DNA of 30,145 nucleotides from Clostridia bacterium (GTDB lineage: Bacteria > Bacillota > Clostridia > Christensenellales > CAG-314). The position numbers were made by a program, and so were the translations under genes. This document shows positions 12,648-30,145 of the stretch, piece after piece. The notes beneath the pieces were generated by a model. It made no database searches and was not told the origin of the DNA. It worked only from the letters and a program-made list of their open reading frames with translations. Every line of letters begins with the position of its first letter. Positions within the stretch are counted from its first letter, which is position 1. The stretch covers positions 1 to 30,145 of the forward strand of contig DAOPIV010000001.1 of assembly GCA_035399325.1 (NCBI GenBank), written 5' to 3'.

Positions 12648-13418
12648 TTATTTTTTTATGACTATTTCGCCCCATGCGATTTTTTCCGTTTTGCCGTCGG
12701 TTTCAATAATGAGCGAACAGTCCTCATCAATTTTCATTGCCTTGCCGCAGTATGATTGTCCGTCTTTTTGGTAAATTATTTCCCTGCCGATAGTATCACA
12801 AATTGAGCTGTATCTTTTTATAAATTGTTGATAGTCGTTTTTGTAATCAGCAAAAATTCTATCGAGATTTTTTCCGATTTCCGCAGCTAATACCACTGTA
12901 TCTGTTTTTTTGCCAATGATTTGCGAAACCGAAACAGCGGTATCGGACAAACTGCCAAAGTCCGTATCGGTATAATTTACATTTACGCCCACACCTATAA
13001 GAATGTATCTAGCCTCATCAAATACGACTGTTTCCGACAAAATTCCGCAAAGTTTTTTTTCTTTAAACAAAACATCATTCGGCCATTTTACAGCACAGTC
13101 AATGTCATAAAGATTTTTTACCGCATCGACTACGGCAAGGCAGCATATTCCTCCGATTGAAGCACCGTATTCCACCAAAAACGGACTTACAAAGGTCATA
13201 TAAACCCCTTTGCCGCTTTTAGACAAAAAAACTCGGTCGTATCTGCCACGTCCTTTCGTTTGCATTTGCGCTAGAACTACGCCTTTCTTTATTTGCCCAG
13301 ATAGAATAAGCTTTTTCGCAAGATTGTTGGTCGAATCGGTTTTTTTAACAAAAGAGCAAGGCAAATTACTGCCCTGCTCCAAAAATATTTTGTTTACTTT
13401 TTTTTGAGTTAACAGCAT
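12648..13418 (-). CDS. birA: Biotin--[acetyl-CoA-carboxylase] ligase without N-terminal HTH
   Basis: DSTNNLAK, QTKGRGR, VKWPNDVL, KLCGILSE, IGVGVNVN; no winged-helix domain; start at ATG 13418 just after the oadB stop. Confidence 0.93.
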   Translation of the reverse strand: MLLTQKKVNKIFLEQGSNLPCSFVKKTDSTNNLAKKLILSGQIKKGVVLAQMQTKGRGRYDRVFLSKSGKGVYMTFVSPFLVEYGASIGGICCLAVVDAVKNLYDIDCAVKWPNDVLFKEKKLCGILSETVVFDEARYILIGVGVNVNYTDTDFGSLSDTAVSVSQIIGKKTDTVVLAAEIGKNLDRIFADYKNDYQQFIKRYSSICDTIGREIIYQKDGQSYCGKAMKIDEDCSLIIETDGKTEKIAWGEIVIKK

Positions 13419-13419
13419 C

Positions 13420-14583
13420 TTAGCCAAATACCGCCATCAAAAATCCCGCTGCAACGGCAGAACCTATTACGCCTGCAACGTTTGGTCCCATAGCGTGCAT
13501 AAGCAAATAATTGTCGGGGTTGTATTTTCTGCCTTCAGCGTTGACTACTCTTGCCGCCATAGGCACTGCGGAAACTCCTGCCGCACCGATAAGCGGATTG
13601 ACTTTTCCTTTTGTAATCCAGCACATAAGTTTGCCAAGAGCTAATCCGCCAACTGTGGAAAAGACAAAAGCCAGCAGTCCAAGTCCTATGATAAGCAATG
13701 TTTGGAAATCCAAAAATGTTGTGTAGTGTGCGGTTGCGCCCACGGAAATACCCAAAAAGATTGTCACTATATTCATCAAAGCGTTTTGAGACGTATCGGA
13801 AAGTCTTTGGGTAACTCCACATTCTCTAAACAAATTACCAAGCATTAGCGCGCCAAGTAACGGAGCAACTGCGGGTAACAATAAACAAGTCACCAAAGTG
13901 ATAACTATCGGAAAAAGGATTTTTTCCGTCTTTGTAACCTCACGTGGCTGTTGCATGACTATCGCTCTTTCTTTTTTGGTAGTCATTAGTTTCATCAGAG
14001 GCGGTTGTATCATCGGAATCAACGCCATATAAGAATATGCTGCAATCGCTATCGGAGCAAGAAGCTCGGGAGCGAGAGTTTTTGTCAGCCATATTGCCGT
14101 AGGTCCGTCAGCTCCGCCGATTATGCCAATAGCAGCGGCTTGGCTTCCCGTAAATCCTGTGCCGATTGCAAGGAAAAATGCGCAGTAAATACCTATTTGT
14201 GCAGCCGCACCCAAAATAAGAGATTTTGGGTTTGCAATCAGCGGACCAAAATCCGTCATTGCGCCGACTCCCAAGAAAATCAAACTTGGATAAAGACCTG
14301 TCTTTACGCCTATATAAAGTATGTCGATAAGACCGCCGTGAGCGAGTATGTTGCCGTAATCTATTTCACCTTTCCATAGCAACGGATCATATACGCTGCT
14401 GTTGGGCAAATTTGTAAGTAACATTCCAAAAGCTATGCCAACCAAAAGCATAGGCTCAAATTTTTTCGCAATGCCCAGAAAAAGTAAGACGCAAGCGATT
14501 GTGATCATTATTATTTGACGGTAATCTATATTTGCAAGACCGCTTGTCTGCCAAAGTTGTTGTAAATTTTGTATTATATTCAT
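13420..14583 (-). CDS. oadB: Na+-translocating decarboxylase beta subunit
   Basis: FEPMLLVGIAFG, GVGAMTDFGPLIANP, IGIIGGADGPT, AAYSYMALIP, GAAGVSAVPMAARV, HAMGPNVAGVIGSA. Confidence 0.95.
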   Translation of the reverse strand: MNIIQNLQQLWQTSGLANIDYRQIIMITIACVLLFLGIAKKFEPMLLVGIAFGMLLTNLPNSSVYDPLLWKGEIDYGNILAHGGLIDILYIGVKTGLYPSLIFLGVGAMTDFGPLIANPKSLILGAAAQIGIYCAFFLAIGTGFTGSQAAAIGIIGGADGPTAIWLTKTLAPELLAPIAIAAYSYMALIPMIQPPLMKLMTTKKERAIVMQQPREVTKTEKILFPIVITLVTCLLLPAVAPLLGALMLGNLFRECGVTQRLSDTSQNALMNIVTIFLGISVGATAHYTTFLDFQTLLIIGLGLLAFVFSTVGGLALGKLMCWITKGKVNPLIGAAGVSAVPMAARVVNAEGRKYNPDNYLLMHAMGPNVAGVIGSAVAAGFLMAVFG

Positions 14584-14594
14584 TTATGGCAACC

Positions 14595-14975
14595 TCACAG
14601 CAATTCCAATAGAGGCGTGCCCGTGCTTACCTGCGCTCCTTTTCCGACAAGTATTTGTCCTATTTTGCCGTCGTGGGGAGCGGTAATTTCGTTTTCCATT
14701 TTCATTGCTTCTATTATCATAAGCACTGTTCCTTTTGTGACGATTTGTCCCGTCGAAACTTTTATATTGATAATAGAACCGGGCAATGGCGAGTTTACAG
14801 TTTTTCCGCCCAAAACTGTCGGAGCGGAAGAAACAGATGTTGTAACCGCTTGGGGAGCGAGGTCAGGAGCTGAAACGACTGGCACTACCGCTTGATATTC
14901 GTCCAAAAGCATAGCCTGTGTTTTTTCAACTTCTACTTCGTACGTTTTTCCATTTAATGTGACTTTGTATTTCAT
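14595..14975 (-). CDS. Biotin carboxyl carrier subunit of the decarboxylase
   Basis: MKYKVTLNGKTYEVEVE, Ala/Pro linker, SPLPGSI, IEAMKMENEI (biotinyl-Lys); start at 14975 after GAGGG RBS. Confidence 0.92.
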   Translation of the reverse strand: MKYKVTLNGKTYEVEVEKTQAMLLDEYQAVVPVVSAPDLAPQAVTTSVSSAPTVLGGKTVNSPLPGSIINIKVSTGQIVTKGTVLMIIEAMKMENEITAPHDGKIGQILVGKGAQVSTGTPLLELL

Positions 14976-14976
14976 A

Positions 14977-15294
14977 TTATTTTCCCTCGCCAATAAGTTT
15001 TATACTTTTAAATCTCAGCTCGTTTATGGGTGTTTCAAGCGAATTTGCAACTATCGCCATAACAAGAGCCGCTTCACGTTCGGTTGTGTCGATTAGTATC
15101 AGTTCACCGCATGTTCCTTCAGCATAGTTTTGTTTTATTTTCTTTTGCATTTTTTCTGCTTTCAACTTTTCGCCTTTCATAGTAAGAAAGGACATCAATT
15201 TGATTACGTACATAAGCAAAACCAAAACAGCCATAATCAAAGTTATTCCGATAAGCGAAAGCCAAAGTGCGTCAAGTAAAGTCAGTTCTGTCAT
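14977..15294 (-). CDS. oadG: OadG/delta-type single-TM subunit of Na+-translocating decarboxylase
   Basis: N-terminal TM (LIGITLIMAVLVLLMYVI), C-terminal AALVMAIVA...RFKSIK; position between alpha and biotin carrier; AGGGGG RBS. Confidence 0.8.
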   Translation of the reverse strand: MTELTLLDALWLSLIGITLIMAVLVLLMYVIKLMSFLTMKGEKLKAEKMQKKIKQNYAEGTCGELILIDTTEREAALVMAIVANSLETPINELRFKSIKLIGEGK

Positions 15295-15306
15295 AATTTA
15301 TCCCCC

Positions 15307-16686
15307 TTACTTGATTTGTGATATGGAGTATTTCACAATTTTTTCTTCTCTTGCTTGTCTTGCCGCAAAGAATTTTTCAGCGACTTGCGGGAACAAAATG
15401 TATGAAAGCACGTCTTCGTCGCTGTGAGCGGTGTCGCCAAGCTCCGCTTTTGTTTTTTCAAATAGCGGTTCAAGATTTTCGGCATATCGTCCTGTGATAG
15501 GTTTTTCCATACCCAAAGCTTTTTTCATTAAGTCTTTGTCGATAGCAGCGGGGGCTTTGCCATATTCACCCCTTATATATGCTTTTAACTCTTTACTAAT
15601 ATTACTGTATCTTTGTCCCGAAATAACGTTGGCAGTGGCTTGAACGCCCACCATTTGACTCATTGGAGTAACAAGAGGCGGATAGCCGAGGTCTTTACGG
15701 ACTTCGGGTGTTTCCAACAGTACTTGTTCAAATTTGTCCATAGCGTTTTGCGCTTTAAGCTGAGCCACAAGGTTAGACAGCATACCGCCAGGGATTTTAT
15801 AGTTTAGAGCATTTGTGTCTGTAGTTAGTACTTTTGGATCAAGCTGTCCTGATTTTAAATATTCGTCCCTAATGGGCATAAAGTGGTCATTGACTTCTTT
15901 TATTACTTTTTCGTCAAGGTCAACTTCATAGCCAAGATTTTTTAATGCATAACAAAGCGTTTCGGTTGCGGGCTGACTTGTTCCGCCTGAAAAACACGAA
16001 GTTGCTGTGTCGAGTATGTCTGCGCCTGCTTCCACGGCTTTGAGATATGTCAAATATGCAAGACCCGTCGTGCAGTGTGTGTGGACAATTACGGGAAGTT
16101 TTACCGATTCTTTAATTGCTTTTACAAGGTCATACGCTTCGCTCGGACTCATTACGCCAGCCATATCTTTTATGCAGATACTAGCGACTCCCATGCTTTC
16201 GAGTTCTTTCGCCAGTTTTGCGAAAGCTTCCAATGTATGAACAGGGCTTGTTGTGTAACTTATTGCGCCTGAGACGATTGCTTTTCTTTTGAGCGCTTCG
16301 TCTATTGAAATTTTTAAGTTTCGTGTGTCGTTTAGCGCATCAAATACACGAATAATATCTATACCGTTACTCACGGATTTTTCAATAAATTTTCTTACCA
16401 CATCATCGGGGTAATGCTTGTAACCAAGCAGGTTTTGCCCACGCAAAAGCATTTGCAGCTTTGTGTTTTGCATGCGGTCTTTTATTTTACGCAATCTTTC
16501 CCATGGGTCTTCGTTAAGATATCTAAGGCAAGAGTCAAAAACCGCTCCGCCCCAGCATTCCACAGAATAATAATGCGCTTTGTCCATCGTAGGCAGAATT
16601 TTTTCAAATTTGTCGTACGGCAAACGAGTAGCTATCAAAGATTGATTGGCATCTCTCAATACTGTTTCGGTAAAAGAAACTTTCAT
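15307..16686 (-). CDS. oadA: Oxaloacetate decarboxylase alpha / pyruvate carboxylase subunit B-type carboxyltransferase, no biotinyl domain
   Basis: ETVLRDANQSLIATR, ECWGGAVFD, EDPWERLR, QMLLRGQNLLGY, RVFDALND, IKDMAG, VHTHCTTG, PGGMLSN, YPPLVTPMSQMVG. Confidence 0.9.
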   Translation of the reverse strand: MKVSFTETVLRDANQSLIATRLPYDKFEKILPTMDKAHYYSVECWGGAVFDSCLRYLNEDPWERLRKIKDRMQNTKLQMLLRGQNLLGYKHYPDDVVRKFIEKSVSNGIDIIRVFDALNDTRNLKISIDEALKRKAIVSGAISYTTSPVHTLEAFAKLAKELESMGVASICIKDMAGVMSPSEAYDLVKAIKESVKLPVIVHTHCTTGLAYLTYLKAVEAGADILDTATSCFSGGTSQPATETLCYALKNLGYEVDLDEKVIKEVNDHFMPIRDEYLKSGQLDPKVLTTDTNALNYKIPGGMLSNLVAQLKAQNAMDKFEQVLLETPEVRKDLGYPPLVTPMSQMVGVQATANVISGQRYSNISKELKAYIRGEYGKAPAAIDKDLMKKALGMEKPITGRYAENLEPLFEKTKAELGDTAHSDEDVLSYILFPQVAEKFFAARQAREEKIVKYSISQIK

Positions 16687-20190: not shown

Positions 20191-20223
20191 AAAAAACGCC
20201 TTGCACGAAGCAGGGCGTTTTTT
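20191..20223. terminator. Bidirectional terminator between convergent TetR and CoA-transferase genes
   Basis: AAAAAACGCCTTGC-ACGAA-GCAGGGCGTTTTTT. Confidence 0.9.
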
Positions 20224-20240
20224 TGATTATTATTAAAATA

Positions 20241-21539
20241 TTATTTTATCAAACCAAGTTCGATAGCCTGTTTTCTAAGTTCTTCTCTAAAATCGGGATG
20301 TGCAATAGAAATCATAGCTTCCGCTCTTTGTGCGATATTTTTGCCACGTAGGTTCACCATACCGTATTCCGTCGCAATATATTGAACGTCATTACGATGC
20401 AAGCTCACGACTGCGCCGGGCTTCAACTGCGGTACGATTTTACTGGTGGCTACTCTTACGCCTTCAGCGTTTTTGACCATGGCGGTAGAATACATTACCA
20501 TAAATGATTTTCCGCCCTCTGACCTTTGAGAACCGTATGCTGTGTCTGATTGTCCGCCCGTTCCGCTAAACTGTCTGGAACCTATTGACTCCGAGCAGCA
20601 TTGTCCCGTAAGGTCTATTTCGATAGACGAGTTAACGGAAATTTGGTTGTCAAGCTGAGCGAGAGTGAATACGCTGTTTGTATAGCTTGCTTCTCTAAGC
20701 AAAACATCCGGATTGTGGTCAATAAATTTATTAACTTTTTCCGTACCATCGGTAATAGCCATAACAATCTTACCTGTGTCAACTCCCTTTTTGCTGCCGT
20801 CAACTGCACCGCATAAAGCAAGGTCAACCAAACCTTCGCCTAGTAATTCCGTGTGAATGCCCAAATGTTTTTTTGTACGCAAAAGTCTGGAAACAGCGTT
20901 GGGAATTCCTCCGATACCGATTTGCAGACAATCGCCGTCATTGATTTGGTCAGCGATAAGTTTACCGATAATTTCATCTCGTGGGTCTTCGGGAGCTGTT
21001 GGAATTTCGGGAATTTGGTGATCATATTCGATAACATAATCAACATCGTCAAGAGTAAATTCTGTATCGCCGTATGTGTACGGCATATATTTATTTACTT
21101 CGGCAATAATGATTTTTGATGATTTCATCAAAGTTTTTGAATGTAAAGCTGATAATCCCATCGACATTTTTCCATTTTCGTCGGGGCGTGTTGCCGCCAC
21201 TACAAAAATATCAATATCGCCCGAGGCAAGCATCGCAATGCCAGCACGTGACAAATGCGTCGGAACGTAATAAACTTTCGGGTTAGCAACGCCTCTCGTT
21301 GCTTTTGTCATAAATATTTCGTTGGTGGTGAATGTGGGGTTTGGAACATCCAAAAACGGGAATTTTTCCGCCATACGGCAGCACCAAAAATCAACGTTTT
21401 TTGTTGTGTCGTTGATTTTGTGAAATTGCGACATAAAACCGTAGGGAGTGCATTGACCTTCGCTCACGGCTACTTTGTAATTGTCTTTTACCAAAGCTAT
21501 CGCTTGGTCGATTGTAATAAGTTTATCTTTATAATTCAT
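20241..21539 (-). CDS. Acetyl-CoA hydrolase/transferase family (4-hydroxybutyrate CoA-transferase-like) acyl-CoA transferase
   Basis: AEVNKYMPYTYGD, LQIGIGGIP, HLGIHTELL (catalytic Glu region), SIEIDLTGQ, SGTGGQSD, IATEYG, ISIAHPDFREEL. Confidence 0.92.
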   Translation of the reverse strand: MNYKDKLITIDQAIALVKDNYKVAVSEGQCTPYGFMSQFHKINDTTKNVDFWCCRMAEKFPFLDVPNPTFTTNEIFMTKATRGVANPKVYYVPTHLSRAGIAMLASGDIDIFVVAATRPDENGKMSMGLSALHSKTLMKSSKIIIAEVNKYMPYTYGDTEFTLDDVDYVIEYDHQIPEIPTAPEDPRDEIIGKLIADQINDGDCLQIGIGGIPNAVSRLLRTKKHLGIHTELLGEGLVDLALCGAVDGSKKGVDTGKIVMAITDGTEKVNKFIDHNPDVLLREASYTNSVFTLAQLDNQISVNSSIEIDLTGQCCSESIGSRQFSGTGGQSDTAYGSQRSEGGKSFMVMYSTAMVKNAEGVRVATSKIVPQLKPGAVVSLHRNDVQYIATEYGMVNLRGKNIAQRAEAMISIAHPDFREELRKQAIELGLIK

Positions 21540-21554
21540 AACTACGCTCCTTTT

Positions 21555-22079
21555 TTAGAGATTGTAACCCGCTTCAAACGCTTTTTTGATATTGTCTGCG
21601 CCTTTCTTTCCTTCAAACTGGTGCATCAATGCGTTTAATGCGGTATCCTTTGCCACTACGCCGCCTAGTTTTACAAATGCTCCAAACATAACAATGTTTG
21701 CCGAGCGTGCGCTGCCAAGTTCAAGCGCTATTGTGTTTGCCTTGATATATTTGACTGTTACATCGTCACGATTGACTTTTCTGTCAATCAAGTCGCTGTT
21801 AACCAAAATCAAACCGCCTTTCTCCACTTTGCTTTCAAACTTGTCTAAACTCGGAGTATTCATAACGATGAGTATATTTGGTTTTGTGATAAGCGGTGAT
21901 GCAACGGGTTTATCGCTCAATACTACCGAACAGTTCGCAGTACCGCCACGCATTTCAGGACCATAACTCGGAAGCCATGTTACTTCAAAATTTTGTTCCA
22001 TACCGGCGTAAACCATAAATTTACCCAAAGACAAAATACCTTGTCCGCCGAAACCGGCGCAAATAATTTTACTTTCCAT
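21555..22079 (-). CDS. 2-oxoacid:ferredoxin oxidoreductase gamma subunit
   Basis: AGFGGQGIL, PSYGPEMRGGTANCSV, NIVMFGA; TAATG overlap with the beta subunit. Confidence 0.93.
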   Translation of the reverse strand: MESKIICAGFGGQGILSLGKFMVYAGMEQNFEVTWLPSYGPEMRGGTANCSVVLSDKPVASPLITKPNILIVMNTPSLDKFESKVEKGGLILVNSDLIDRKVNRDDVTVKYIKANTIALELGSARSANIVMFGAFVKLGGVVAKDTALNALMHQFEGKKGADNIKKAFEAGYNL

Positions 22080-22822
22080 TATTTGTCACCTCCGATATCT
22101 TTGTAAACACCAAGCGGATAATTAGCAGCCATTTCGTTTTTCACATGTTGCATAGCATCGGGAGGATTCATACCCCAGTTTGTAGGGCATGCAGCCAAGA
22201 TTTCAACCATAGTGAAACCTTTGCCTGCCATTTGGTATTCGAAAGCTTTTTTGATGGCTTTTTTTGTTTTTAGTATATTCGCATAATCGCATACCATAGT
22301 CCGTTCAATATAAGCAGGTCCGCTTTGTGTAGCAAGCATTTCGCACATTTTTATGGGGTTGCCTTGTTTTTTGACATCTCTTCCAAAGGGGCTTGTGCTT
22401 GTTTTTTGTCCGATCAAAGTAGTAGGTGCCATTTGTCCGCCCGTCATTCCATAAATTGCGTTATTGATGAAAATAACGGTAATGTTTTCGCCTCTTAGTC
22501 CTGCGTGTACGATTTCTGCCAAGCCAATACTTGCCAAATCACCGTCGCCTTGATAGGTGAAAACTATTTTATCTGGATGCACTCTTTTTATACCTGTTGC
22601 CACAGCGGGAGCTCTGCCGTGAGCCGCTTGCTGTGAATCACAGTTGAAGAAATTGTAACTAAATACCGAACATCCGACAGAAGCGACTTCCACAGTTTTG
22701 CTTTGAAGTCCAAGTTCGTCCAAAACTTCGGCAACTAATTTTGTAGCTATACCGTGTGAACAACCGGGGCAGAAGCTCAGAGTTGCGTCGGTAAGCATTT
22801 TTGGTTTAGTCCATTTTGGCAT
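22079..22822 (-). CDS. 2-oxoacid:ferredoxin oxidoreductase beta (TPP-binding) subunit, VOR-like
   Basis: FCPGCSHG, SVGC, AAHGRAPAVATG, YQGDGDLASIG, NNAIYGMTGGQMAPTT, CPTNWG. Confidence 0.93.
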   Translation of the reverse strand: MPKWTKPKMLTDATLSFCPGCSHGIATKLVAEVLDELGLQSKTVEVASVGCSVFSYNFFNCDSQQAAHGRAPAVATGIKRVHPDKIVFTYQGDGDLASIGLAEIVHAGLRGENITVIFINNAIYGMTGGQMAPTTLIGQKTSTSPFGRDVKKQGNPIKMCEMLATQSGPAYIERTMVCDYANILKTKKAIKKAFEYQMAGKGFTMVEILAACPTNWGMNPPDAMQHVKNEMAANYPLGVYKDIGGDK

Positions 22823-23886
22823 TATTTGATTACCTCCATAACTTTTTCGACAATGTCTTCAGGTGACATTACCTCTCCGCCCATACGGCATAACAAGTCG
22901 ATGGGTTTTTTGCCGTTAACAGCAAGTCGAACGTCTTCGTTGTATTGACCTGCGGAAAGCTCGACAGTCAAAAATCTTTTTACGTTTGGTTTATTTGCCA
23001 CTTCTTCAAAAACTTTTGTAGCAAACGGGAAAAGCGTAGTGGGTCTTATTAAACCTACTTTTACTCCCTTTTCTCTTAATATAGGAAGAGCGGATTTGCA
23101 AATACGTCCAACACTGCCGTATGCGGTCAATACTATTTCCGCATCGTCGCAGTCTATAGCTTCACAAATAACTTCTTTCTTTTCGATTTCACGATATTTT
23201 GCTTGAAGACGGTAGTTTTGTTCCAAACATTCTTCGCTCTTTAAGTAAAGACTGTTGACAATGCGTCTTTCGTCGCCGTAATGCGTGCCTGTGGTAGCCC
23301 AGTCAAATTTTTCTGGATCATTGGGCTGTTTCATCGGAGGAAGCTCAACGGGTTCCATCAGCTGTCCCATCATACCGTCGCCCAAAATGAAAACGGGAAT
23401 ACGGTATTGTTCCGCTTTGTCCCATGCCATATACATAAGGTCTACAGCTTCTTGGATAGTAGCGGGAGCGTATACAAGCAATTTGTAATCGCCGTGTCCG
23501 CCGCCTTTGACAGCCTGAGCATAGTCGGACTGAGCCGGTTGGATACCGCCCAAACCCGGACCCGCTCTTACCATATTTACAACAACAGCGGGAACTTCCG
23601 CCATTGCCATATAAGAAATGCCTTCTTGTTTTAGCGAAATTCCGGGACTTGATGAGCTTGTCATAGCTCTGCCGCCGGCACCGCCTGCTCCGTATACCAT
23701 ATTGATAGCGGCAACTTCGCTTTCGGCTTGGACAAAGTCTCCGCCTACTTCAAACAATCTCCACGAAAGATATTCGGGTATTTCTGTTTGCGGAGTAATA
23801 GGATAGCCAAAGAAAAATCTGCATCCGCCACGTACAGCCGCTTCGGCGATAGCTTCGTTTCCTTTCATCAAAACTTTTTTAGTCAT
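22822..23886 (-). CDS. 2-oxoacid:ferredoxin oxidoreductase alpha subunit, 3-methyl-2-oxobutanoate dehydrogenase (VorB)-like
   Basis: LMKGNEAIAEAA, GYPITPQTE, QAESEVAAINM, TSSSSPGISLKQE, RAGPGLGGIQPAQSDY, KGGGHGDY. Start at ATG 23886 after GGAGG. Confidence 0.92.
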   Translation of the reverse strand: MTKKVLMKGNEAIAEAAVRGGCRFFFGYPITPQTEIPEYLSWRLFEVGGDFVQAESEVAAINMVYGAGGAGGRAMTSSSSPGISLKQEGISYMAMAEVPAVVVNMVRAGPGLGGIQPAQSDYAQAVKGGGHGDYKLLVYAPATIQEAVDLMYMAWDKAEQYRIPVFILGDGMMGQLMEPVELPPMKQPNDPEKFDWATTGTHYGDERRIVNSLYLKSEECLEQNYRLQAKYREIEKKEVICEAIDCDDAEIVLTAYGSVGRICKSALPILREKGVKVGLIRPTTLFPFATKVFEEVANKPNVKRFLTVELSAGQYNEDVRLAVNGKKPIDLLCRMGGEVMSPEDIVEKVMEVIK

Positions 23887-23888
23887 AC

Positions 23889-24086
23889 CTATTTTACCTC
23901 CAAAACACTGTCGGGACAAATGTAAGCGCACGCAGCGCAAGCGATACATTGCTCTTCGTCTATACATTCAACCGCAAAATATCCGCCTCTGTTGCTTTTT
24001 GCTCCCATTTTCAAGATTTTTTTCGGGCAAGCCGTAACGCATAATCCGCATCCCTTGCACTTTTCAAAATCGATTTGAACTTTCAT
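23889..24086 (-). CDS. 2x[4Fe-4S] ferredoxin-type delta subunit
   Basis: CKGCGLCVTACP and CIACAACAYICPD; start at ATG 24086 after GAGGAG overlapping the ilvE stop. Confidence 0.92.
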   Translation of the reverse strand: MKVQIDFEKCKGCGLCVTACPKKILKMGAKSNRGGYFAVECIDEEQCIACAACAYICPDSVLEVK

Positions 24087-24097
24087 TTGATTTCTCC

Positions 24098-25153
24098 TCA
24101 ATCTATAATGGTTAACCAGTCGTATTTGTCAGGATACTTTCTCGTCTGTATTCCACGCAAACGATCATAAGCTGTTTTTGCAACGGGTCCCACTTTATTG
24201 TTGTTAATAACATACTCTTCGCCTTTGTAGCCGATAACGCCAACCGGCGAAACAGTAGCAGCTGTGCCAACGCCGAACATTTCCGTAAGTCTGCCTTCCT
24301 TTGCAGCCTTTATTATATCATCCACAGCAAAATGTCCTTCGTTTACCGTATAGCCTTCGTCACGCAATATTTTTATGATAGAGTGGCGTGTGATACCACG
24401 CAAAATGCTTCCGTCAAGCTCGGGTGTGCAAACAACTCCGTCCATAACAAACATAACGTTCATTGTGCCTACTTCTTCTATATATTTATGCTCTTCAGCG
24501 TCAAGCCACAAAACCTGGTCGAAACCTTGTTGAGCCGACTCGTACTGAGCAAGCAATCCAGCCGCATAGTTACCCATACATTTAGCTTCGCCAGTACCGC
24601 CTTTTGCCGCTCTAACGTATTTGTCTTCGATATATATACGTGCCGTTTCTTCAGATCCGTGCAAGTATGCGCCGACAGGCGACATAACGATAAACAATTT
24701 GTACTCTCTTGAAACATGGACGCCTAAAGCCACCTCGGATGCAATCATTGTTGGACGCAAATACAAAGCTGTGTTCGGCAGTGTGGGCACCCAGTCTTTT
24801 TCGAGTTTTATCATTTCGATAAGAGCTTCCAAAACGACGTTTTCATCAAACTGAGGCATACACATACGGTATGCGCTGCGGTTCATACGTTTGAAATTGT
24901 CCATAATGCGGAACAAAGTAACCTCGCCCTTGTCATTGCGGAAAGCTTTGCAGCCTTCAAAAATACCTTGACCGTAATGCAGACACATTGTCATCGGAGA
25001 CATGTCAAAATTGCTGTATGGTCTTATTACGGGTTCGCCCCATGCTCCGTTAGCATAATCCATCTCCAACAAGTAGTCGGTATGAAGTTTTCCGAAACCC
25101 AACTTAGAGAAATCGGGCTTTTTTTGCAACTTGTCAGCCTTAATAATTTTCAT
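24098..25153 (-). CDS. ilvE: Branched-chain amino acid aminotransferase (class IV PLP)
   Basis: CLHYGQGIFEGCKAFR, LYLRPTMI, GTGEAKCMGNY (PLP Lys), QVLWLD, EEVGTMN, ILRGITRHS, FGVGTAATVSP. Confidence 0.96.
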   Translation of the reverse strand: MKIIKADKLQKKPDFSKLGFGKLHTDYLLEMDYANGAWGEPVIRPYSNFDMSPMTMCLHYGQGIFEGCKAFRNDKGEVTLFRIMDNFKRMNRSAYRMCMPQFDENVVLEALIEMIKLEKDWVPTLPNTALYLRPTMIASEVALGVHVSREYKLFIVMSPVGAYLHGSEETARIYIEDKYVRAAKGGTGEAKCMGNYAAGLLAQYESAQQGFDQVLWLDAEEHKYIEEVGTMNVMFVMDGVVCTPELDGSILRGITRHSIIKILRDEGYTVNEGHFAVDDIIKAAKEGRLTEMFGVGTAATVSPVGVIGYKGEEYVINNNKVGPVAKTAYDRLRGIQTRKYPDKYDWLTIID

Positions 25154-25246: not shown

Positions 25247-25271
25247 AAAAAAAACTACTCTTTACGAGTAG
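25247..25271 (-). terminator. Intrinsic terminator in the ilvE leader (candidate attenuator)
   Basis: Minus strand CTACTC-GTAAA-GAGTAG followed by eight T; about 95 nt upstream of the ilvE ATG. Confidence 0.75.
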
Positions 25272-25277
25272 ATAGTC

Positions 25278-25376
25278 TTAACCCTTATTGTTTGGCAAAA
25301 TAATCTTTCCTGTCACCAAAATCAGCGGAAAGATTATAGAAAATAAAAGCATCAAAATAAAAAGACCCAACGTCAT
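25278..25376 (-). CDS. Unannotated 32-aa Leu/Ile-rich ORF MTLGLFILMLLFSIIFPLILVTGKIILPNNKG (candidate leader peptide of the ilvE-vor operon)
   Basis: GAGGT RBS 6 nt before ATG, directly downstream of a TTGACA/TACCAT promoter; 8 Leu, 6 Ile, 1 Val; followed by a terminator. Confidence 0.65.
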   Translation of the reverse strand: MTLGLFILMLLFSIIFPLILVTGKIILPNNKG

Positions 25377-25394: not shown

Positions 25395-25423
25395 ATGGTA
25401 TACCAATATTTTTAGTTTGTCAA
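25395..25423 (-). promoter_or_regulatory. Promoter of the leader ORF / ilvE-vor operon
   Basis: TTGACA-17 nt-TACCAT. Confidence 0.8.
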
Positions 25424-27528: not shown

Positions 27529-27594
27529 GTGTGTGCCTAAATGAACGTTTAGCTATTTTTTATGGCTTATTTTTTATACATTACGGAGGGGAAA

Positions 27595-27906
27595 ATGCGA
27601 ATTGAGAAACATCCAATCTTGACCTTTGAAAAAGGTGAAATCGTGACTTTTACTTTCAACGGCACGATTTACCAAGGCATCAAAGGCGAGCCTATCGCAA
27701 GCGCGCTCCACGCCAACGGCGTAAGGACGCTCGGACACACACACGACAAAAATCGACCGCGCGGACTTTATTGCGCCATCGGAAACTGCAGCAGCTGTCT
27801 TGCCACCGTCAACGGCAAACCAAACGTAAGAATTTGCGTTGAGCCTTTGACTGACGGAATGGTTGTGACTCAGCAAAAAGGACGGGGGGTACTGAAAAAT
27901 GATTAA
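27595..27906 (+). CDS. [2Fe-2S]-binding protein (N-terminal domain of sarcosine oxidase alpha / PdhA / HcnA type)
   Basis: GEPIASALHANG, RPRGLYCAIGNCSSCLATVNGKPNVRIC (Cx4Cx2C..C); start at ATG 27595 after GGAGGG. Confidence 0.88.
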   Translation: MRIEKHPILTFEKGEIVTFTFNGTIYQGIKGEPIASALHANGVRTLGHTHDKNRPRGLYCAIGNCSSCLATVNGKPNVRICVEPLTDGMVVTQQKGRGVLKND

Positions 27907-28978
27907 AACAGACGTTGCCGTCATCGGCGGCGGTCCTGCTGGAATGTGTGCCGCAATCGAAGCGGCAAATGCAGGCGCTAAAGTAATAATTTTTGAAAGA
28001 AACTCTAGTCTGGGCGGACAGCTTGTAAAACAAACGCATATGTTTTTCGGTTCGCAAAAACAATATGCGTCAACCCGAGGATTTGACATCTCAAAAATAT
28101 TGCGTGACCAAATATCACAAAATGAAAATATAACCGTTTTGACAAATGCCACCGTCATAGGCATGTATGAAGACGGCGTGCTGACTGTAGAACACGAGAA
28201 TAAATATAAAAAAGTTTTGCCCCGAGCAACGGTAGTGGCAACGGGCGCAAGTGAAAAGTTTTTACCTTTCAACAACAACGACTTGCCAGGCATTTACGGT
28301 GCAGGCGCTGTTCAGACACTTATGAATGTATACGGCGTAAAACCGGGTGACGAGGTGGTAATGGTAGGCGCAGGTAATATAGGTCTTATCGTCAGTTATC
28401 AGCTTTTGCAGGCAGGAGTAAAAGTAAACGCCGTAATAGACGCCGCTCCTCGTATTGGCGGCTACTTGGTACACGCAAGTAAAATCCGCCGTATGGGCGT
28501 GCCAATACTTACTTCCACCACAGTAAAAACAGCTCACGGAACTGACTGCGTAGAAGGCGTTACTTTGGTAAAACTTGACGAAAATTGGAAAGAAATTCCC
28601 GATAGCGAATTTTACATTCCTTGCGACAATCTGTGTATAGCAGTGGGACTTTCACCATTAACCGAACTTATGTGGCAGATTGGTATAGAAATGGCTTATG
28701 TGCCACAGCTTGGCGGATACGTGCCGAAAAGCAACAAAAATATGCAGACAAGCCGTCCCGAAGTTTTTGTGGCTGGCGATGCCTCAGGCGTAGAAGAAGC
28801 AAGCTCCGCAATGGTAGAAGGTCGTATTGCGGGATTGAACGCAGCAGCATTTTTGGGTTTCAAAAATTCCGAAACCGACAGCAAACTGGCAGACTATTTT
28901 GAGCAGGCGGATTCATTAAGAAGCGGCCCTGTCGGCGAAAAAATACGCGCGGGTCTAAAACTCGCCGAATTGGATTAA
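27899..28978 (+). CDS. NAD(P)/FAD-dependent oxidoreductase (PdhA/HcnB/sarcosine oxidase alpha-like)
   Basis: VIGGGPAG, LGGQLVKQTHMFFG, VVATGASE, NNDLPGIYGAGAVQ, VGAGNIG, VFVAGDASGVEEASSAMVEGRIAG. Confidence 0.88.
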   Translation: MIKTDVAVIGGGPAGMCAAIEAANAGAKVIIFERNSSLGGQLVKQTHMFFGSQKQYASTRGFDISKILRDQISQNENITVLTNATVIGMYEDGVLTVEHENKYKKVLPRATVVATGASEKFLPFNNNDLPGIYGAGAVQTLMNVYGVKPGDEVVMVGAGNIGLIVSYQLLQAGVKVNAVIDAAPRIGGYLVHASKIRRMGVPILTSTTVKTAHGTDCVEGVTLVKLDENWKEIPDSEFYIPCDNLCIAVGLSPLTELMWQIGIEMAYVPQLGGYVPKSNKNMQTSRPEVFVAGDASGVEEASSAMVEGRIAGLNAAAFLGFKNSETDSKLADYFEQADSLRSGPVGEKIRAGLKLAELD

Positions 28979-28992
28979 CGGAGGAAAGTAAA

Positions 28993-29763
28993 ATGTTAGA
29001 AAAAACAGGTATAGCAACAAAGGAACAAATAGAATCCGTTACTCCGTCAGCTGAACGCAGAGGCAAAGGCGCAATCGCAATATGCGAATGTTTTCAAAAC
29101 ATTCCTTGCAATCCTTGCTACACTTCTTGCAAATTCGGCGCTATGAAACCCCTCATCGACATAAATGAGCGTCCTGAAGTAAACCCCGATAAATGCACGG
29201 GCTGCGGTATTTGCATAAGCAACTGCCCTGGGCTGGCGATTTTTGTAATAGACGAAACTTATTCCGAAACCGAAGCTTTGGTAAAACTCCCTTACGAATT
29301 TTTGCCATTACCCGAAAACGGAACTTTCGTCACTGGAACGGACAGAGCGGGAAAAGCCGTGTGCCGCGCAAAAGTGATAAAAGTTTTGAACACAGCAGCA
29401 CAAGACAAGACTCCCGTGGTTTGGCTTGCCGTACCGAAAGAACTTTCAATGACTGTAAGAAGTTTCAAAATAGACGATATATATAGCGACAACACATATT
29501 TGTGCCGTTGCGAAGAAGTGACATTGGGGCAAGTGCGTGAACTTATCCGCAAAGGTTACACCAGCGTGGATGAAATCAAACGTATTTCACGTGCGGGAAT
29601 GGGACCTTGTCAAGGAAAGACGTGCAGACAGCTTATTATGAACGAAATTTCAAAAATGACTGGCGAAAAAATCCAAGATATGCCCGTATCTACTTTTAGA
29701 CCGCCAGTCAGACCAATAAAACTTGGAATGCTGGCACAAAGCGAGGATGAAACAAATGAGTGA
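28993..29763 (+). CDS. Fusion of 2x[4Fe-4S] ferredoxin domain and BFD-like [2Fe-2S] domain
   Basis: CFQNIPCNPCYTSC, CTGCGICISNC, then LCRCEEV...KRISRAGMGPCQGKTC...TFRPPVRP. Confidence 0.88.
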   Translation: MLEKTGIATKEQIESVTPSAERRGKGAIAICECFQNIPCNPCYTSCKFGAMKPLIDINERPEVNPDKCTGCGICISNCPGLAIFVIDETYSETEALVKLPYEFLPLPENGTFVTGTDRAGKAVCRAKVIKVLNTAAQDKTPVVWLAVPKELSMTVRSFKIDDIYSDNTYLCRCEEVTLGQVRELIRKGYTSVDEIKRISRAGMGPCQGKTCRQLIMNEISKMTGEKIQDMPVSTFRPPVRPIKLGMLAQSEDETNE

Positions 29764-30145
29764 ATATAAAGCGAGTATAGTCATAATCGGCGGCGGTATT
29801 TCGGGCGTTTCCACCGCATACGAACTGGCAAAACGTGGAATGAAAGACATTATCGTTGTCGAAAGGGATTACATAGCCAGCGGTTCGACAGGCAGATGCG
29901 GCGCAGGCGTACGTATGCAATGGGGAACGGAAATGAACTGCCGTTTGTCAAAATACGCTATCGAAAGATATGAAAAAGCGCAGGAAGAGCTTGATTACGA
30001 ATTTGATATAGAATTCAAGCAAGAAGGCTATTTAATCGTTGCGGCGACAGAAAAAGAGATGAATCAATTCCGCAAAAATGTGGAGCTTCAAAACAGCCTT
30101 GGCATACCAAGCAAACTTGTAACGCCAAAAGAAGCAAAAGAAATC
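29756..30145 (+). CDS. FAD-dependent amino acid dehydrogenase, DAO family (PdhB/sarcosine oxidase beta-like); truncated by window edge, absent from ORF track
   Basis: Manual translation: MSEYKASIVIIGGGISGVSTAYELAKRGMKDIIVVERDYIASGSTGRCGAGVRMQWGTEMN...FKQEGYL...FRKNVELQNSLGIPSKLVTPKEAKEI; overlaps the upstream stop; GAGGA RBS. Confidence 0.9.
   Translation, partial: MSEYKASIVIIGGGISGVSTAYELAKRGMKDIIVVERDYIASGSTGRCGAGVRMQWGTEMNCRLSKYAIERYEKAQEELDYEFDIEFKQEGYLIVAATEKEMNQFRKNVELQNSLGIPSKLVTPKEAKEI

Follow-up and report, generated by a model that had tools for sequence, protein, structure and literature searches.

The window analysed here is the whole stretch of 30,145 nucleotides from a Clostridia bacterium, and on its minus strand six genes follow one another at 20241..25153 in the order ilvE, delta, alpha, beta and gamma subunits of a 2-oxoacid:ferredoxin oxidoreductase (OFOR), and a CoA-transferase, all of them open reading frames (ORFs) with the limits given in Table 1. 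As the sequence-only reading had claimed, the genes are contiguous: read directly in the sequence, the junctions are gaps of 11 nt (ilvE/delta), 2 nt (delta/alpha) and 15 nt with an AAGGAG ribosome-binding site (gamma/transferase), or one-base TAATG overlaps (alpha/beta and beta/gamma). The single terminator of that reading was also recovered, as the hairpin that ends the operon, and no comparable minus-strand terminator was found inside it. In RNA library data of a close relative, contigs span the gamma/transferase and alpha/delta/ilvE junctions. The six genes form one predicted transcription unit, with one strong promoter and a leader upstream and one terminator downstream. The promoter-like site is identical in L001/L088/L089.

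Table 1. Features of the six-gene operon and its leader, in order of transcription
Feature	Position	Strand	Description
Promoter-like site, before leader	25395..25423	-	TTGACA-17-TACCAT; best sigma-70-type match of the region, 10/12
Leader ORF	25278..25376	-	32 codons, 47% Ile+Leu+Val; GAGG + 7 nt ahead of start
Hairpin within leader ORF	25300..25337	-	11-bp arms, variable loop
Leader intrinsic terminator	25247..25271	-	6-bp stem, loop of 5, eight T
ilvE, branched-chain amino acid aminotransferase (class IV, type II)	24098..25153	-	351 aa, NF009897
OFOR delta, 2x[4Fe-4S] ferredoxin	23889..24086	-	65 aa, Pfam Fer4 families, two CxxCxxCxxxCP motifs
OFOR alpha, 'VorB' family NF005507	22822..23886	-	354 aa, POR_N + PFOR_II domains
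OFOR beta, TPP-binding	22079..22822	-	PF02775, GDG..NN motif, [4Fe-4S] Cys18/21/51/212
OFOR gamma	21555..22079	-	PF01558, 133 bits
Family I CoA-transferase, 4-hydroxybutyrate/butyryl-CoA transferase family, OFOR-linked clade	20241..21539	-	432 aa, PF02550 + PF13336
Two-way intrinsic terminator at operon end	20191..20223	.	14-pair hairpin, A- and T-runs on flanks

The gene identities proposed earlier held up, with domain, motif and family-model matches agreeing for ilvE, the OFOR subunits and the transferase. By curated models, the ilvE product is a branched-chain amino acid aminotransferase (BCAT): it passes the equivalogs NF009897 (426 bits, cut-off 307) and TIGR01123 (350, cut-off 250), the best-scoring PDB entries are BCATs throughout (3ht5 at 285 bits), and it is the sole homologue found in the 73%-complete genome. 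All four OFOR subunits carry the domains expected of a four-subunit enzyme, with cofactor motifs in delta and beta. The alpha subunit scores 521 bits with the 'VorB' model NF005507 (cut-off 399), but only 77 bits with the archaeal VOR alpha model NF006232, and beta reaches only 63 bits with NF008818. The second-best NCBIfam matches of alpha and beta are Kor/Oor models, although the scores stay far below the cut-offs of the Kor and Oor equivalogs (297 against 411 and 247 against 579), and the nearest solved alpha chains are Kor-type, namely 1yd7 (211 bits), 8ys5 (195 bits) and 6n2n. Judged by these scores, the characterised archaeal VOR is a much more distant relative of alpha than Kor/Oor-type enzymes are, and beta too scores nearer to the Kor/Oor side. 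At other Bacillota loci of the same OFOR family ilvE is never found beside the OFOR (0 of 30), so that branched-chain specificity rests here on context; from the adjacency to ilvE kept in six genera, the enzyme may act on branched 2-oxoacids.

The last gene product is a family I CoA-transferase with the two-domain AcetylCoA_hydro fold, the catalytic glutamate and the GxGG motif. Among solved structures it matches 3eh7 (293 bits) and 3gk7 (268 bits), both of the 4-hydroxybutyrate CoA-transferase AbfT; the structure of RipA is 3qli. Glu231 corresponds in the alignment to residue 238 of the 3gk7 chain, the SGTGGQ motif is present, and neither varies among 66 relatives; the role of this glutamate in the family has been described (PMC3180442). 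The protein falls below the cut-off of the butyryl-CoA:acetate CoA-transferase equivalog TIGR03948 (292 bits against 674.8) and of the succinyl-CoA:acetate CoA-transferase models NF053853 (63 bits against 500) and TIGR03458 (83 against 659). The OFOR-linked transferases and two amidase-linked ones form one clade (SH-aLRT 100), nested among sister CoA-transferases. It is set apart from 58 sister sequences by positions 27, 55, 94 and 262 and, next to the catalytic glutamate, by 232 and 234. The clade has Glu/Asp27, mostly Arg55, Thr94, Leu232, Gly234 and Ile262, and the sisters Leu/Met27, Leu55, Asn94, Met232, Thr234 and Phe262; the clade position aligned with His31 of AbfT, a substrate-pocket residue, is Glu or Asp. 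Arg55 is missing from the L133/L137 branch, where the same operon is retained. The clade's residues at 27 and 55, where the sisters have Leu or Met, are not those expected of a purely hydrophobic acyl pocket, which counts against a branched-chain substrate. One genome (G018) codes for the operon-type transferase and also for a C4-type paralogue in a Bcd-Etf/thiolase/importer cluster. The earlier claim that the transferase acts on the acyl-CoA product of the OFOR is strengthened by the synteny over six genera, the dedicated clade and the separate C4-type paralogue of this genome; its substrate would be a branched-chain acyl-CoA, with acetate as the probable CoA acceptor.

The six-gene order is kept at L001, L002, L003, L005, L090/L136, L133 and L137, loci that span six genera of one small-genome Clostridia family, with transferase identity going from 93% down to 49%. 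The carriers are uncultured Clostridia of sludge and sediment. Since the six genes recur in order in relatives whose transferase is only 49-55% identical, their arrangement is evidently not a chance juxtaposition. Gene content was checked in five genomes that carry the operon (two are 95% complete), and ilvC was surveyed in 81 genomes of the family. None of the five has ilvC, ilvD or leuB above cut-off, a butyrate kinase match (TIGR02707) above cut-off, or FabH above cut-off (in G000 and G003 there is no FabH at all). In each of them, the single full-length PTA_PTB gene, a Pta, adjoins an acetate-kinase-like gene that scores below the butyrate-kinase cut-off, and an [FeFe] hydrogenase is present. 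PFOR and IOR, the usual enzyme set of amino-acid fermenters, were found in these genomes, and so were LIV/BPD_transp_2 permeases; no BrnQ-type carrier of branched-chain amino acids (BCAA) was found, and no other Kor-type enzyme turned up. An acyl-CoA dehydrogenase (Bcd) was found in neither G000 nor G003, and elsewhere only once, beside a transferase paralogue, which leaves branched acyl-CoA with no visible onward route. In the wider survey, ilvC was missing from 77 of the 81 genomes, and the largest genus of the family (46 genomes, most of them more than 90% complete) has neither ilvC nor this OFOR. The sequence-only reading had held that absence of the ilv/leu genes would favour salvage of branched acids; this argument does not survive, because most relatives without the operon also lack ilvC. 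Within genus g6, ilvC-bearing and OFOR-bearing genomes overlap only in part.

Ahead of ilvE, the leader ORF has an Ile+Leu+Val share in the top 0.5% among 2763 short ORFs of the genome. This enrichment is also strong at L001 and L005 and is weak at L003; taken whole, the leader ORFs of L003 and L002 show none, and no leader of this kind precedes the operons of L133 and L137. The GAGG-spacer-ATG arrangement is retained at L002 and L090. When the window is compared with L002, the arms of the hairpin are conserved apart from a single G-C pair that has become G-U, and the loop varies in both length and sequence. The terminator begins 7 nt past the leader stop codon, and in five lineages the stop codon either precedes the terminator stem by 3-12 nt or falls within it, the 12 nt of L002 being borderline. 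The leader ORF with regulatory codons and the terminator of a classical attenuator are both present; a stall-induced antiterminator did not appear in the folds. Leader logic was modelled for six leaders with constrained minimum-free-energy folds and an assumed ribosome footprint, and none of them yielded a convincing antiterminator that could switch the operon on under starvation. The terminator was kept at nearly all stall positions, with at most two of six pairs lost at codons 17-20, and was lost only with the ribosome at or near the leader stop codon. These folds hint at an operon that is on when the leader is fully translated, i.e., when BCAA are plentiful, a catabolic logic that would favour production of branched short-chain fatty acids (BCFA) over salvage. 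The choice between a BCFA-producing and a salvage route had been left open in the sequence-only reading, which named the polarity of the leader beforehand as the indicator; the either/or was fair, and the folding models point to the producing side.

Considering all of the above, the best explanation, which we hold tentatively and at a probability of roughly 0.45, is that the operon serves to ferment the three BCAA (Val, Leu and Ile) to BCFA, acetyl-CoA being the source of ATP. The module would interconvert these amino acids and their branched acids in three reversible steps. IlvE would move the amino group onto 2-oxoglutarate; the OFOR would reduce ferredoxin while converting the branched 2-oxoacid, by oxidative decarboxylation, into isobutyryl-, isovaleryl- or 2-methylbutyryl-CoA; and the dedicated transferase would pass the CoA to acetate, releasing the branched acid and acetyl-CoA. 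From acetyl-CoA, ATP would be made via Pta and acetate kinase, and the reduced ferredoxin would be vented as H2 through the [FeFe] hydrogenase. The physiological direction is most likely catabolic, and the leader is the probable switch in the folding models, turning the operon on once it can be translated to its end, with BCAA plentiful.

Biosynthetic use is possible as well, given the reversibility of all three steps and the absence of ilvC, ilvD and leuB from the genomes. The transferase would activate isobutyrate, isovalerate or 2-methylbutyrate at the expense of acetyl-CoA, the OFOR would carboxylate the acyl-CoAs with reduced ferredoxin, and IlvE would turn the products into Val, Leu and Ile by amination, the ilv/leu pathway having been lost in these organisms. 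We regard this salvage as unlikely, even if it agrees with the missing BrnQ-type carrier, with PFOR and hydrogenase as possible sources of reduced ferredoxin, and with the partial overlap of ilvC and OFOR in genus g6. Allison's work is said to have found carboxylation of isovalerate to leucine in rumen microbes. An Ile/Leu-rich leader ORF upstream of a terminator, as found here, is a hallmark of biosynthetic attenuators. That rumen microbes carboxylate isovalerate to leucine is established (PMC7356843), and for AbfT, one of the characterised enzymes of the transferase family, activation is the physiological direction (PMC3180442 and its refs 5 and 14). Against salvage, however, stand the 77 family genomes without ilvC, the LIV/BPD_transp_2 permeases and the missing "on when starved" antiterminator, and uptake of BCAA from peptides is evidently enough, because the largest genus has neither ilvC nor the OFOR. 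It is likewise doubtful that this would be an ATP-free line in which all three BCAA come from environmental branched short-chain acids, CoA transfer from acetyl-CoA replacing a ligase; if it were, the same reversible operon could still ferment BCAA when amino acids are plentiful.

Another possibility, which we find improbable, is that the OFOR acts on 2-oxoglutarate or on a broad range of 2-oxoacids. The transferase would then be a succinyl-CoA:acetate CoA-transferase, and the operon would link glutamate/2-oxoglutarate to succinate in either direction, the BCAT merely exchanging amino groups. The nearest solved alpha subunits and the next-best models for alpha and beta are of the 2-oxoglutarate type, 2-oxoglutarate is itself a BCAT substrate, and no other Kor-type enzyme was found in these genomes; in addition, L005 has aconitase and isocitrate dehydrogenase just upstream, and the transferase clade has Arg55 and Glu27. 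Nevertheless, alpha passes NF005507 and fails the Kor/Oor equivalogs, the succinyl-CoA transferase models give only 63-83 bits, Arg55 is missing from the L133/L137 branch despite the same operon, the leader is Ile/Leu-rich, and the aminotransferase would need stoichiometric branched 2-oxoacids, for which these genomes have no pathway. Very improbable is that the transferase is a mere passenger in the operon that still serves its ancestral C4 substrates (butyrate, 4- or 3-hydroxybutyrate), or that the operon supplies branched acyl-CoA primers for membrane lipids in place of free acids: the closest solved relatives are 4-hydroxybutyrate CoA-transferases, sister clades occupy importer/hydrolase/thiolase clusters, and loss of a delta-alpha-beta-gamma OFOR in B. 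fragilis is rescued by fatty acids (PMC11304471), which may be read as a primer role if one goes beyond that report, but the 15-nt junction with its own ribosome-binding site and no terminator, the linkage kept across six genera, the clade-specific changes adjoining the catalytic Glu, the separate C4-type cluster of G018 and the results for FabH and Bcd all stand against it.

The operon is a plausible variant of known chemistry, with predicted substrates and direction. Clostridial Stickland-type BCAA fermentation uses a BCAT, a VOR or PFOR-like enzyme and Ptb/Buk, and the preferred reading resembles it in transamination, ferredoxin-dependent oxidative decarboxylation, a free branched acid as product and a yield of one ATP for each amino acid. 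It differs in that all three steps are encoded in one operon, that the last gene codes for a CoA-transferase, with no butyrate kinase above cut-off, and that ATP would come indirectly, from acetyl-CoA through Pta and acetate kinase. In the Thermococcales, oxidative BCAA fermentation involves an ADP-forming acyl-CoA synthetase (PMC3942289). The OFOR studied here belongs to the bacterial NF005507 family and not to the archaeal VOR family. In the leader, a short amino-acid-rich ORF is followed by an intrinsic terminator, as in the ilvGMEDA, leu and trp attenuators of E. coli; however, no 2:3 antiterminator could be folded here, and the polarity would be opposite to that of the ilv/leu attenuators. 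The ribosome-occlusion control of the pyrBI attenuator is more closely resembled, since the stop codon abuts or enters the terminator.

With But (TIGR03948), AbfT and RipA, the window transferase shares the Pfam domains, the position of the catalytic glutamate, the GxGGQ motif and the proposed logic, in which acetate takes over the CoA at the end of a fermentation. Within the family, chain-length specificity is known to vary (PMC8360832). In the PVFFHE motif of the 4-hydroxybutyrate transferases, the FF pair is H-L in the window, and the gene is linked to an OFOR and ilvE instead of a butyrate or 4-aminobutyrate pathway. The sister transferases (Acholeplasma, Izemoplasmatales, and many Clostridia) are 40-53% identical to the OFOR-linked clade and lie in LivHMGF/binding-protein/alpha-beta-hydrolase clusters, with or without thiolase, SDR and KAS-III-like genes. 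Finally, reductive carboxylation in rumen and gut anaerobes uses the same three reaction types backwards, in hosts without ilv/leu genes. To our knowledge, the routes described activate the acid by ATP-dependent ligases or kinases, whereas activation here would be by CoA transfer.

The operon consists of ilvE, the delta, alpha, beta and gamma genes of a 2-oxoacid:ferredoxin oxidoreductase (OFOR), and a family I CoA-transferase gene, with junctions, in gene order, of 11 nt, 2 nt, two one-base TAATG overlaps and 15 nt, the last of which holds an AAGGAG ribosome-binding site ahead of the transferase. The sequence-only reading had described six contiguous genes with tight junctions and a single end terminator; read directly, the ORFs, junctions and terminators bore this out in every detail. 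In a sediment RNA-seq library, contigs matched parts of the operon at 90 to 99% identity, with one lying over the gamma/transferase junction (window positions 21409-21791) and one over alpha/delta/ilvE (23834-24211). These contigs come from relatives and leave the leader, most of ilvE and most of the transferase uncovered, and are compatible with cotranscription without proving it.

Features of the operon, its leader and the neighboring genes in the window (BCAT, branched-chain aminotransferase)
Feature	Size	Position	Strand	Remarks
Six-ORF operon		25153..20241	-	
Promoter-like site		25423..25395	-	Best match of the region
Leader ORF	32 codons			Between promoter and ilvE; good Shine-Dalgarno sequence
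Leader terminator		25271..25247	-	One of only two strong terminators
ilvE	351 aa		-	Passes two curated BCAT equivalogs, including NF009897 (426 bits vs 307)
OFOR delta	65 aa		-	Ferredoxin with two CxxCxxCxxxCP motifs
OFOR alpha	354 aa		-	POR_N and PFOR_II; passes NF005507 "VorB" (521 bits vs 399)
OFOR beta			-	TPP-binding; GDG..NN motif and four cluster cysteines
OFOR gamma			-	PF01558 match
CoA-transferase	432 aa	21539..20241	-	AcetylCoA_hydro N- and C-terminal domains
Two-way hairpin terminator		20191-20223		Downstream of the transferase; the other strong terminator
DUF885 protein	605 aa	25587-27404	+	Divergent from the operon
Na+ pump gene set		12648-16686	-	Oxaloacetate-decarboxylase type
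Redox cluster		27562-30145		2Fe-2S protein, FAD oxidoreductase, ferredoxin/BFD-like fusion

This module is real and conserved. The identical six-gene order was found on every contig of relatives that is long enough (L001, L002, L003/L004/L009, L005 and L090) and in the family genomes G011, G016 and G032, altogether in six genera of one Clostridia family with genomes of 1.1 to 2.2 Mb and transferase identities down to 49%; in a collection of 5.8 billion proteins, the closest transferase homologs were 93%, 70%, 59% and 55% identical. Since an OFOR alpha subunit above the NF005507 cutoff is common in the phylum (120 of 201 sampled genomes) and ilvE lay within 1.2 kb upstream of the OFOR in none of the 30 best-scoring loci of that sample, the coupling of ilvE and the transferase to this oxidoreductase is a local invention. 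Other genera of the family carry delta-alpha-beta-gamma beside unrelated genes, without the operon partners. The stand-alone OFOR operons of sister genera were inspected for a replacement terminal enzyme, but their neighbors, NYN-domain, OGG glycosylase and sporulation genes, are uninformative. The gene position of the DUF885 protein, for which no NCBIfam model matched, is kept next to the operon in L001 and L002. One genus (L005:1-3811) has aconitase, isocitrate dehydrogenase and a GltD/NfnB-like Fer4_20 and Pyr_redox_2 protein directly upstream of the leader on the same strand, a local supply of the 2-oxoglutarate needed by the aminotransferase. Full-text literature searches turned up neither an ilvE/VOR/CoA-transferase operon nor, within this family, a branched acyl-CoA:acetate transferase.

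The operon is best read as a reversible converter between branched-chain amino acids (BCAA) and branched acids. We favor the fermentative direction, from BCAA to branched acids, over salvage, with a probability of about 0.45, somewhat short of even. The window's genome (1.11 Mb in 142 contigs) is 72.7% complete, and therefore four operon-bearing relatives, two of them 95% complete, were searched as well. The sequence-only reading had pointed to Ptb/Buk as the usual means of ATP recovery; no butyrate kinase scored above the cutoff in any of the five genomes, and what all five have is Pta adjoining an acetate-kinase-like gene. All five also carry [FeFe] hydrogenases and BPD_transp_2 permeases, and BrnQ was found in none. 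Together, the transferase, Pta and acetate kinase would form a complete path on which BCAA are turned into branched acids with a gain of ATP, hydrogenase serving as the electron sink. No alternative fate of branched acyl-CoA is visible in these genomes; acyl-CoA dehydrogenase occurs in three of the five and, in G018, the one checked, adjoins a paralogous transferase.

Salvage, in which the operon steps run in reverse from branched acids to BCAA, draws on the reversibility of all three steps and on PFOR, which can supply reduced ferredoxin; we consider it rather unlikely. An absence of ilv/leu genes had been proposed to favor it. The genes indeed went unfound, with ilvC, leuB and above-cutoff ilvD in none of the five operon genomes (both 95%-complete ones have a sub-cutoff IlvD/Edd-family dehydratase), but their absence is no argument for salvage, because the family lacks them with or without the operon: ilvC occurs in just 4 of the 81 family genomes, and both ilvC and this OFOR are missing from the largest genus (46 genomes). 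The family evidently subsists on imported amino acids or peptides. Elsewhere in the window, synteny with the Pfam calls of L001 shows an Na+ pump set whose alpha subunit is split (HMGL-like/PYC_OADA carboxyltransferase, OAD_gamma, biotin-lipoyl carrier as a separate protein and OAD_beta, then biotin-protein ligase), and the redox cluster fits an amino-acid-fermenting lifestyle.

As to the substrate of the oxidoreductase, the pass on the "VorB" model counts for less than the name implies. Models of archaeal, biochemically characterized VOR gave only 63 to 77 bits on the operon OFOR, Kor/Oor models were the runners-up, and the nearest structures are 2-oxoglutarate-type enzymes; the solved structures nearest to the operon IlvE are BCATs throughout. 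The conserved first-gene ilvE, the Ile/Leu-rich leader and pathway logic make specificity for branched 2-oxoacids likely. A reading of the operon around 2-oxoglutarate and succinyl-CoA is improbable: with the OFOR acting on 2-oxoglutarate, branched 2-oxoacids would have to reach the aminotransferase in stoichiometric amounts from some source, and the operon genomes cannot make them; the transferase, too, failed the succinyl-CoA transferase models. The operon genomes also encode PFOR and a bona fide IOR (TIGR03336, 674 bits vs 651), and a branched-chain OFOR would complete the usual enzyme set of amino-acid fermenters. In B. fragilis, phospholipids or oleate, but not glutamate, rescue a deletion of kor2CDAEBG, which encodes a delta/alpha/beta/gamma OFOR with a 2-ketoglutarate oxidoreductase annotation (PMC11304471), a pattern that would fit a branched-primer (VOR-like) role. 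For the operon, a lipid-primer role, or mere hitch-hiking of the transferase, is very unlikely; FabH scored above the cutoff in none of the five operon genomes.

The best solved relatives of the transferase are the 4-hydroxybutyrate CoA-transferases (AbfT) 3eh7 (293 bits) and 3gk7 (268 bits), and it failed the butyryl-CoA:acetate equivalog (292 bits vs 675). Family I enzymes work by a ping-pong mechanism with a catalytic glutamate (PMC3180442); Glu231 aligns with 3gk7 position 238 within an HTE/HSE motif, and SGTGGQ with SGVGGQ, both being invariant among the relatives. Residues were mapped through the AbfT alignment only, the N-terminal part of RipA (3qli, PMC3180442) giving no sequence alignment. 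A quick maximum-likelihood tree built from 82 sequences groups nine OFOR-linked and two amidase-linked transferases in one clade (SH-aLRT 100), nested among transferases that adjoin LivHMGF-type importers and alpha/beta-hydrolases and often also a thiolase, an SDR and a KAS-III-like gene. Compared with 58 importer-type sisters, the OFOR-linked clade has Leu232 and Gly234 instead of Met and Thr, directly C-terminal to the catalytic Glu; Glu/Asp instead of Leu/Met at position 27, which aligns with AbfT His31; Arg in 6 of 8 at position 55, where all 58 sisters have Leu; Thr/Cys/Ser instead of Asn at position 94; and Ile instead of Phe at position 262. These residues look like the signature of a substrate change, although they do not name the new substrate; specificity has shifted within the family between butyryl and caproyl (PMC8360832) and between 4-hydroxybutyrate and butyrate (PMC3180442). 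The chemistry of the operon is familiar, and its last enzyme is best read as a newly specialized CoA-transferase.

Around approximately 50 of 77 homologous transferases, in Acholeplasma, Izemoplasmatales, Erysipelotrichia and many Clostridia (loci L011-L086, e.g., L011:3860-10842, L051 and L033, and L140:789-17240), the importer neighborhood is a fixed cassette in which the CoA-transferase is accompanied by LivH/M permeases, two ABC ATPases, a Peripla_BP_6 binding protein and one to three alpha/beta-hydrolases; the SDR among its frequent extras is FabG-like. G018 holds both transferase types, the second copy in a Bcd-EtfAB/TetR/thiolase/SDR/KAS-III/importer/hydrolase cluster. Branched-primer uptake, considered for the importer/FabH-like clusters, was dropped on sight of this full cluster. 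In two gut Clostridia MAGs (L007:5086-7828 and L008:6516-9302), a transferase of the OFOR clade adjoins an amidase gene, without OFOR; these amidase-linked transferases carry the clade-specific residues, suggesting that the OFOR linkage was lost secondarily or was transferred.

An Rfam scan at the gathering threshold found no riboswitch or T-box in the whole window. The leader ORF is 47% Ile, Leu and Val, within the top 0.5% of 2,763 short ORFs in the genome, and the terminator starts 7 nt past its stop codon. At the same place, five other lineages carry a short ORF that is nonhomologous or only partly homologous to that of the window, each with its stop codon 3 to 12 nt ahead of the terminator or within it. 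Between the window and L002, nucleotide conservation falls in blocks that correspond to an 11-bp hairpin within the ORF, with a variable loop, and to the terminator, and a one-base difference in loop length shifts the downstream reading frame. The leader ORFs of L003 and L002 show no overall Ile/Leu/Val enrichment, the promoter of the L133/L137 branch is a plain one with no leader, and L126, with a partial, 85% identical ilvE, was rejected as a further case, having no leader and a different upstream gene. When minimum-free-energy models were folded with a ribosome footprint set at each codon, the terminator survived nearly all stall positions and was abolished only with the ribosome at the last codons; L002 is borderline in this respect. 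Constrained folding of six leaders found no classical antiterminator. The design thus modeled differs from the ilv/leu attenuators and resembles pyrBI, where a closely following ribosome occludes the terminator. Under such occlusion, charged Ile- and Leu-tRNA would switch the operon on, and the leader and terminator could be a leader-peptide attenuator of reversed polarity, on when Ile and Leu are plentiful.

Branched short-chain fatty acids serve as standard markers where protein is fermented in digesters, sediments and guts, and many fastidious anaerobes use them as growth factors. To our knowledge, Ptb/Buk and acyl-CoA synthetases aside, it is poorly established which genes release these acids in the last step or activate them in the first. 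If the dedicated transferase clade is confirmed, BCAA turnover in metagenomes could be budgeted with it as a marker gene, and pathway models of uncultured Clostridia with small genomes would gain an enzyme that they lack; the reverse direction, if true, would explain how organisms without ilv/leu live on the waste acids of their neighbors. The operon would be a compact, self-regulated three-step cassette, and its transferase would have its parallel in the two terminal routes known for butyrate formation, of which the transferase route ends in the CoA-transfer step that the last step of the operon mirrors.
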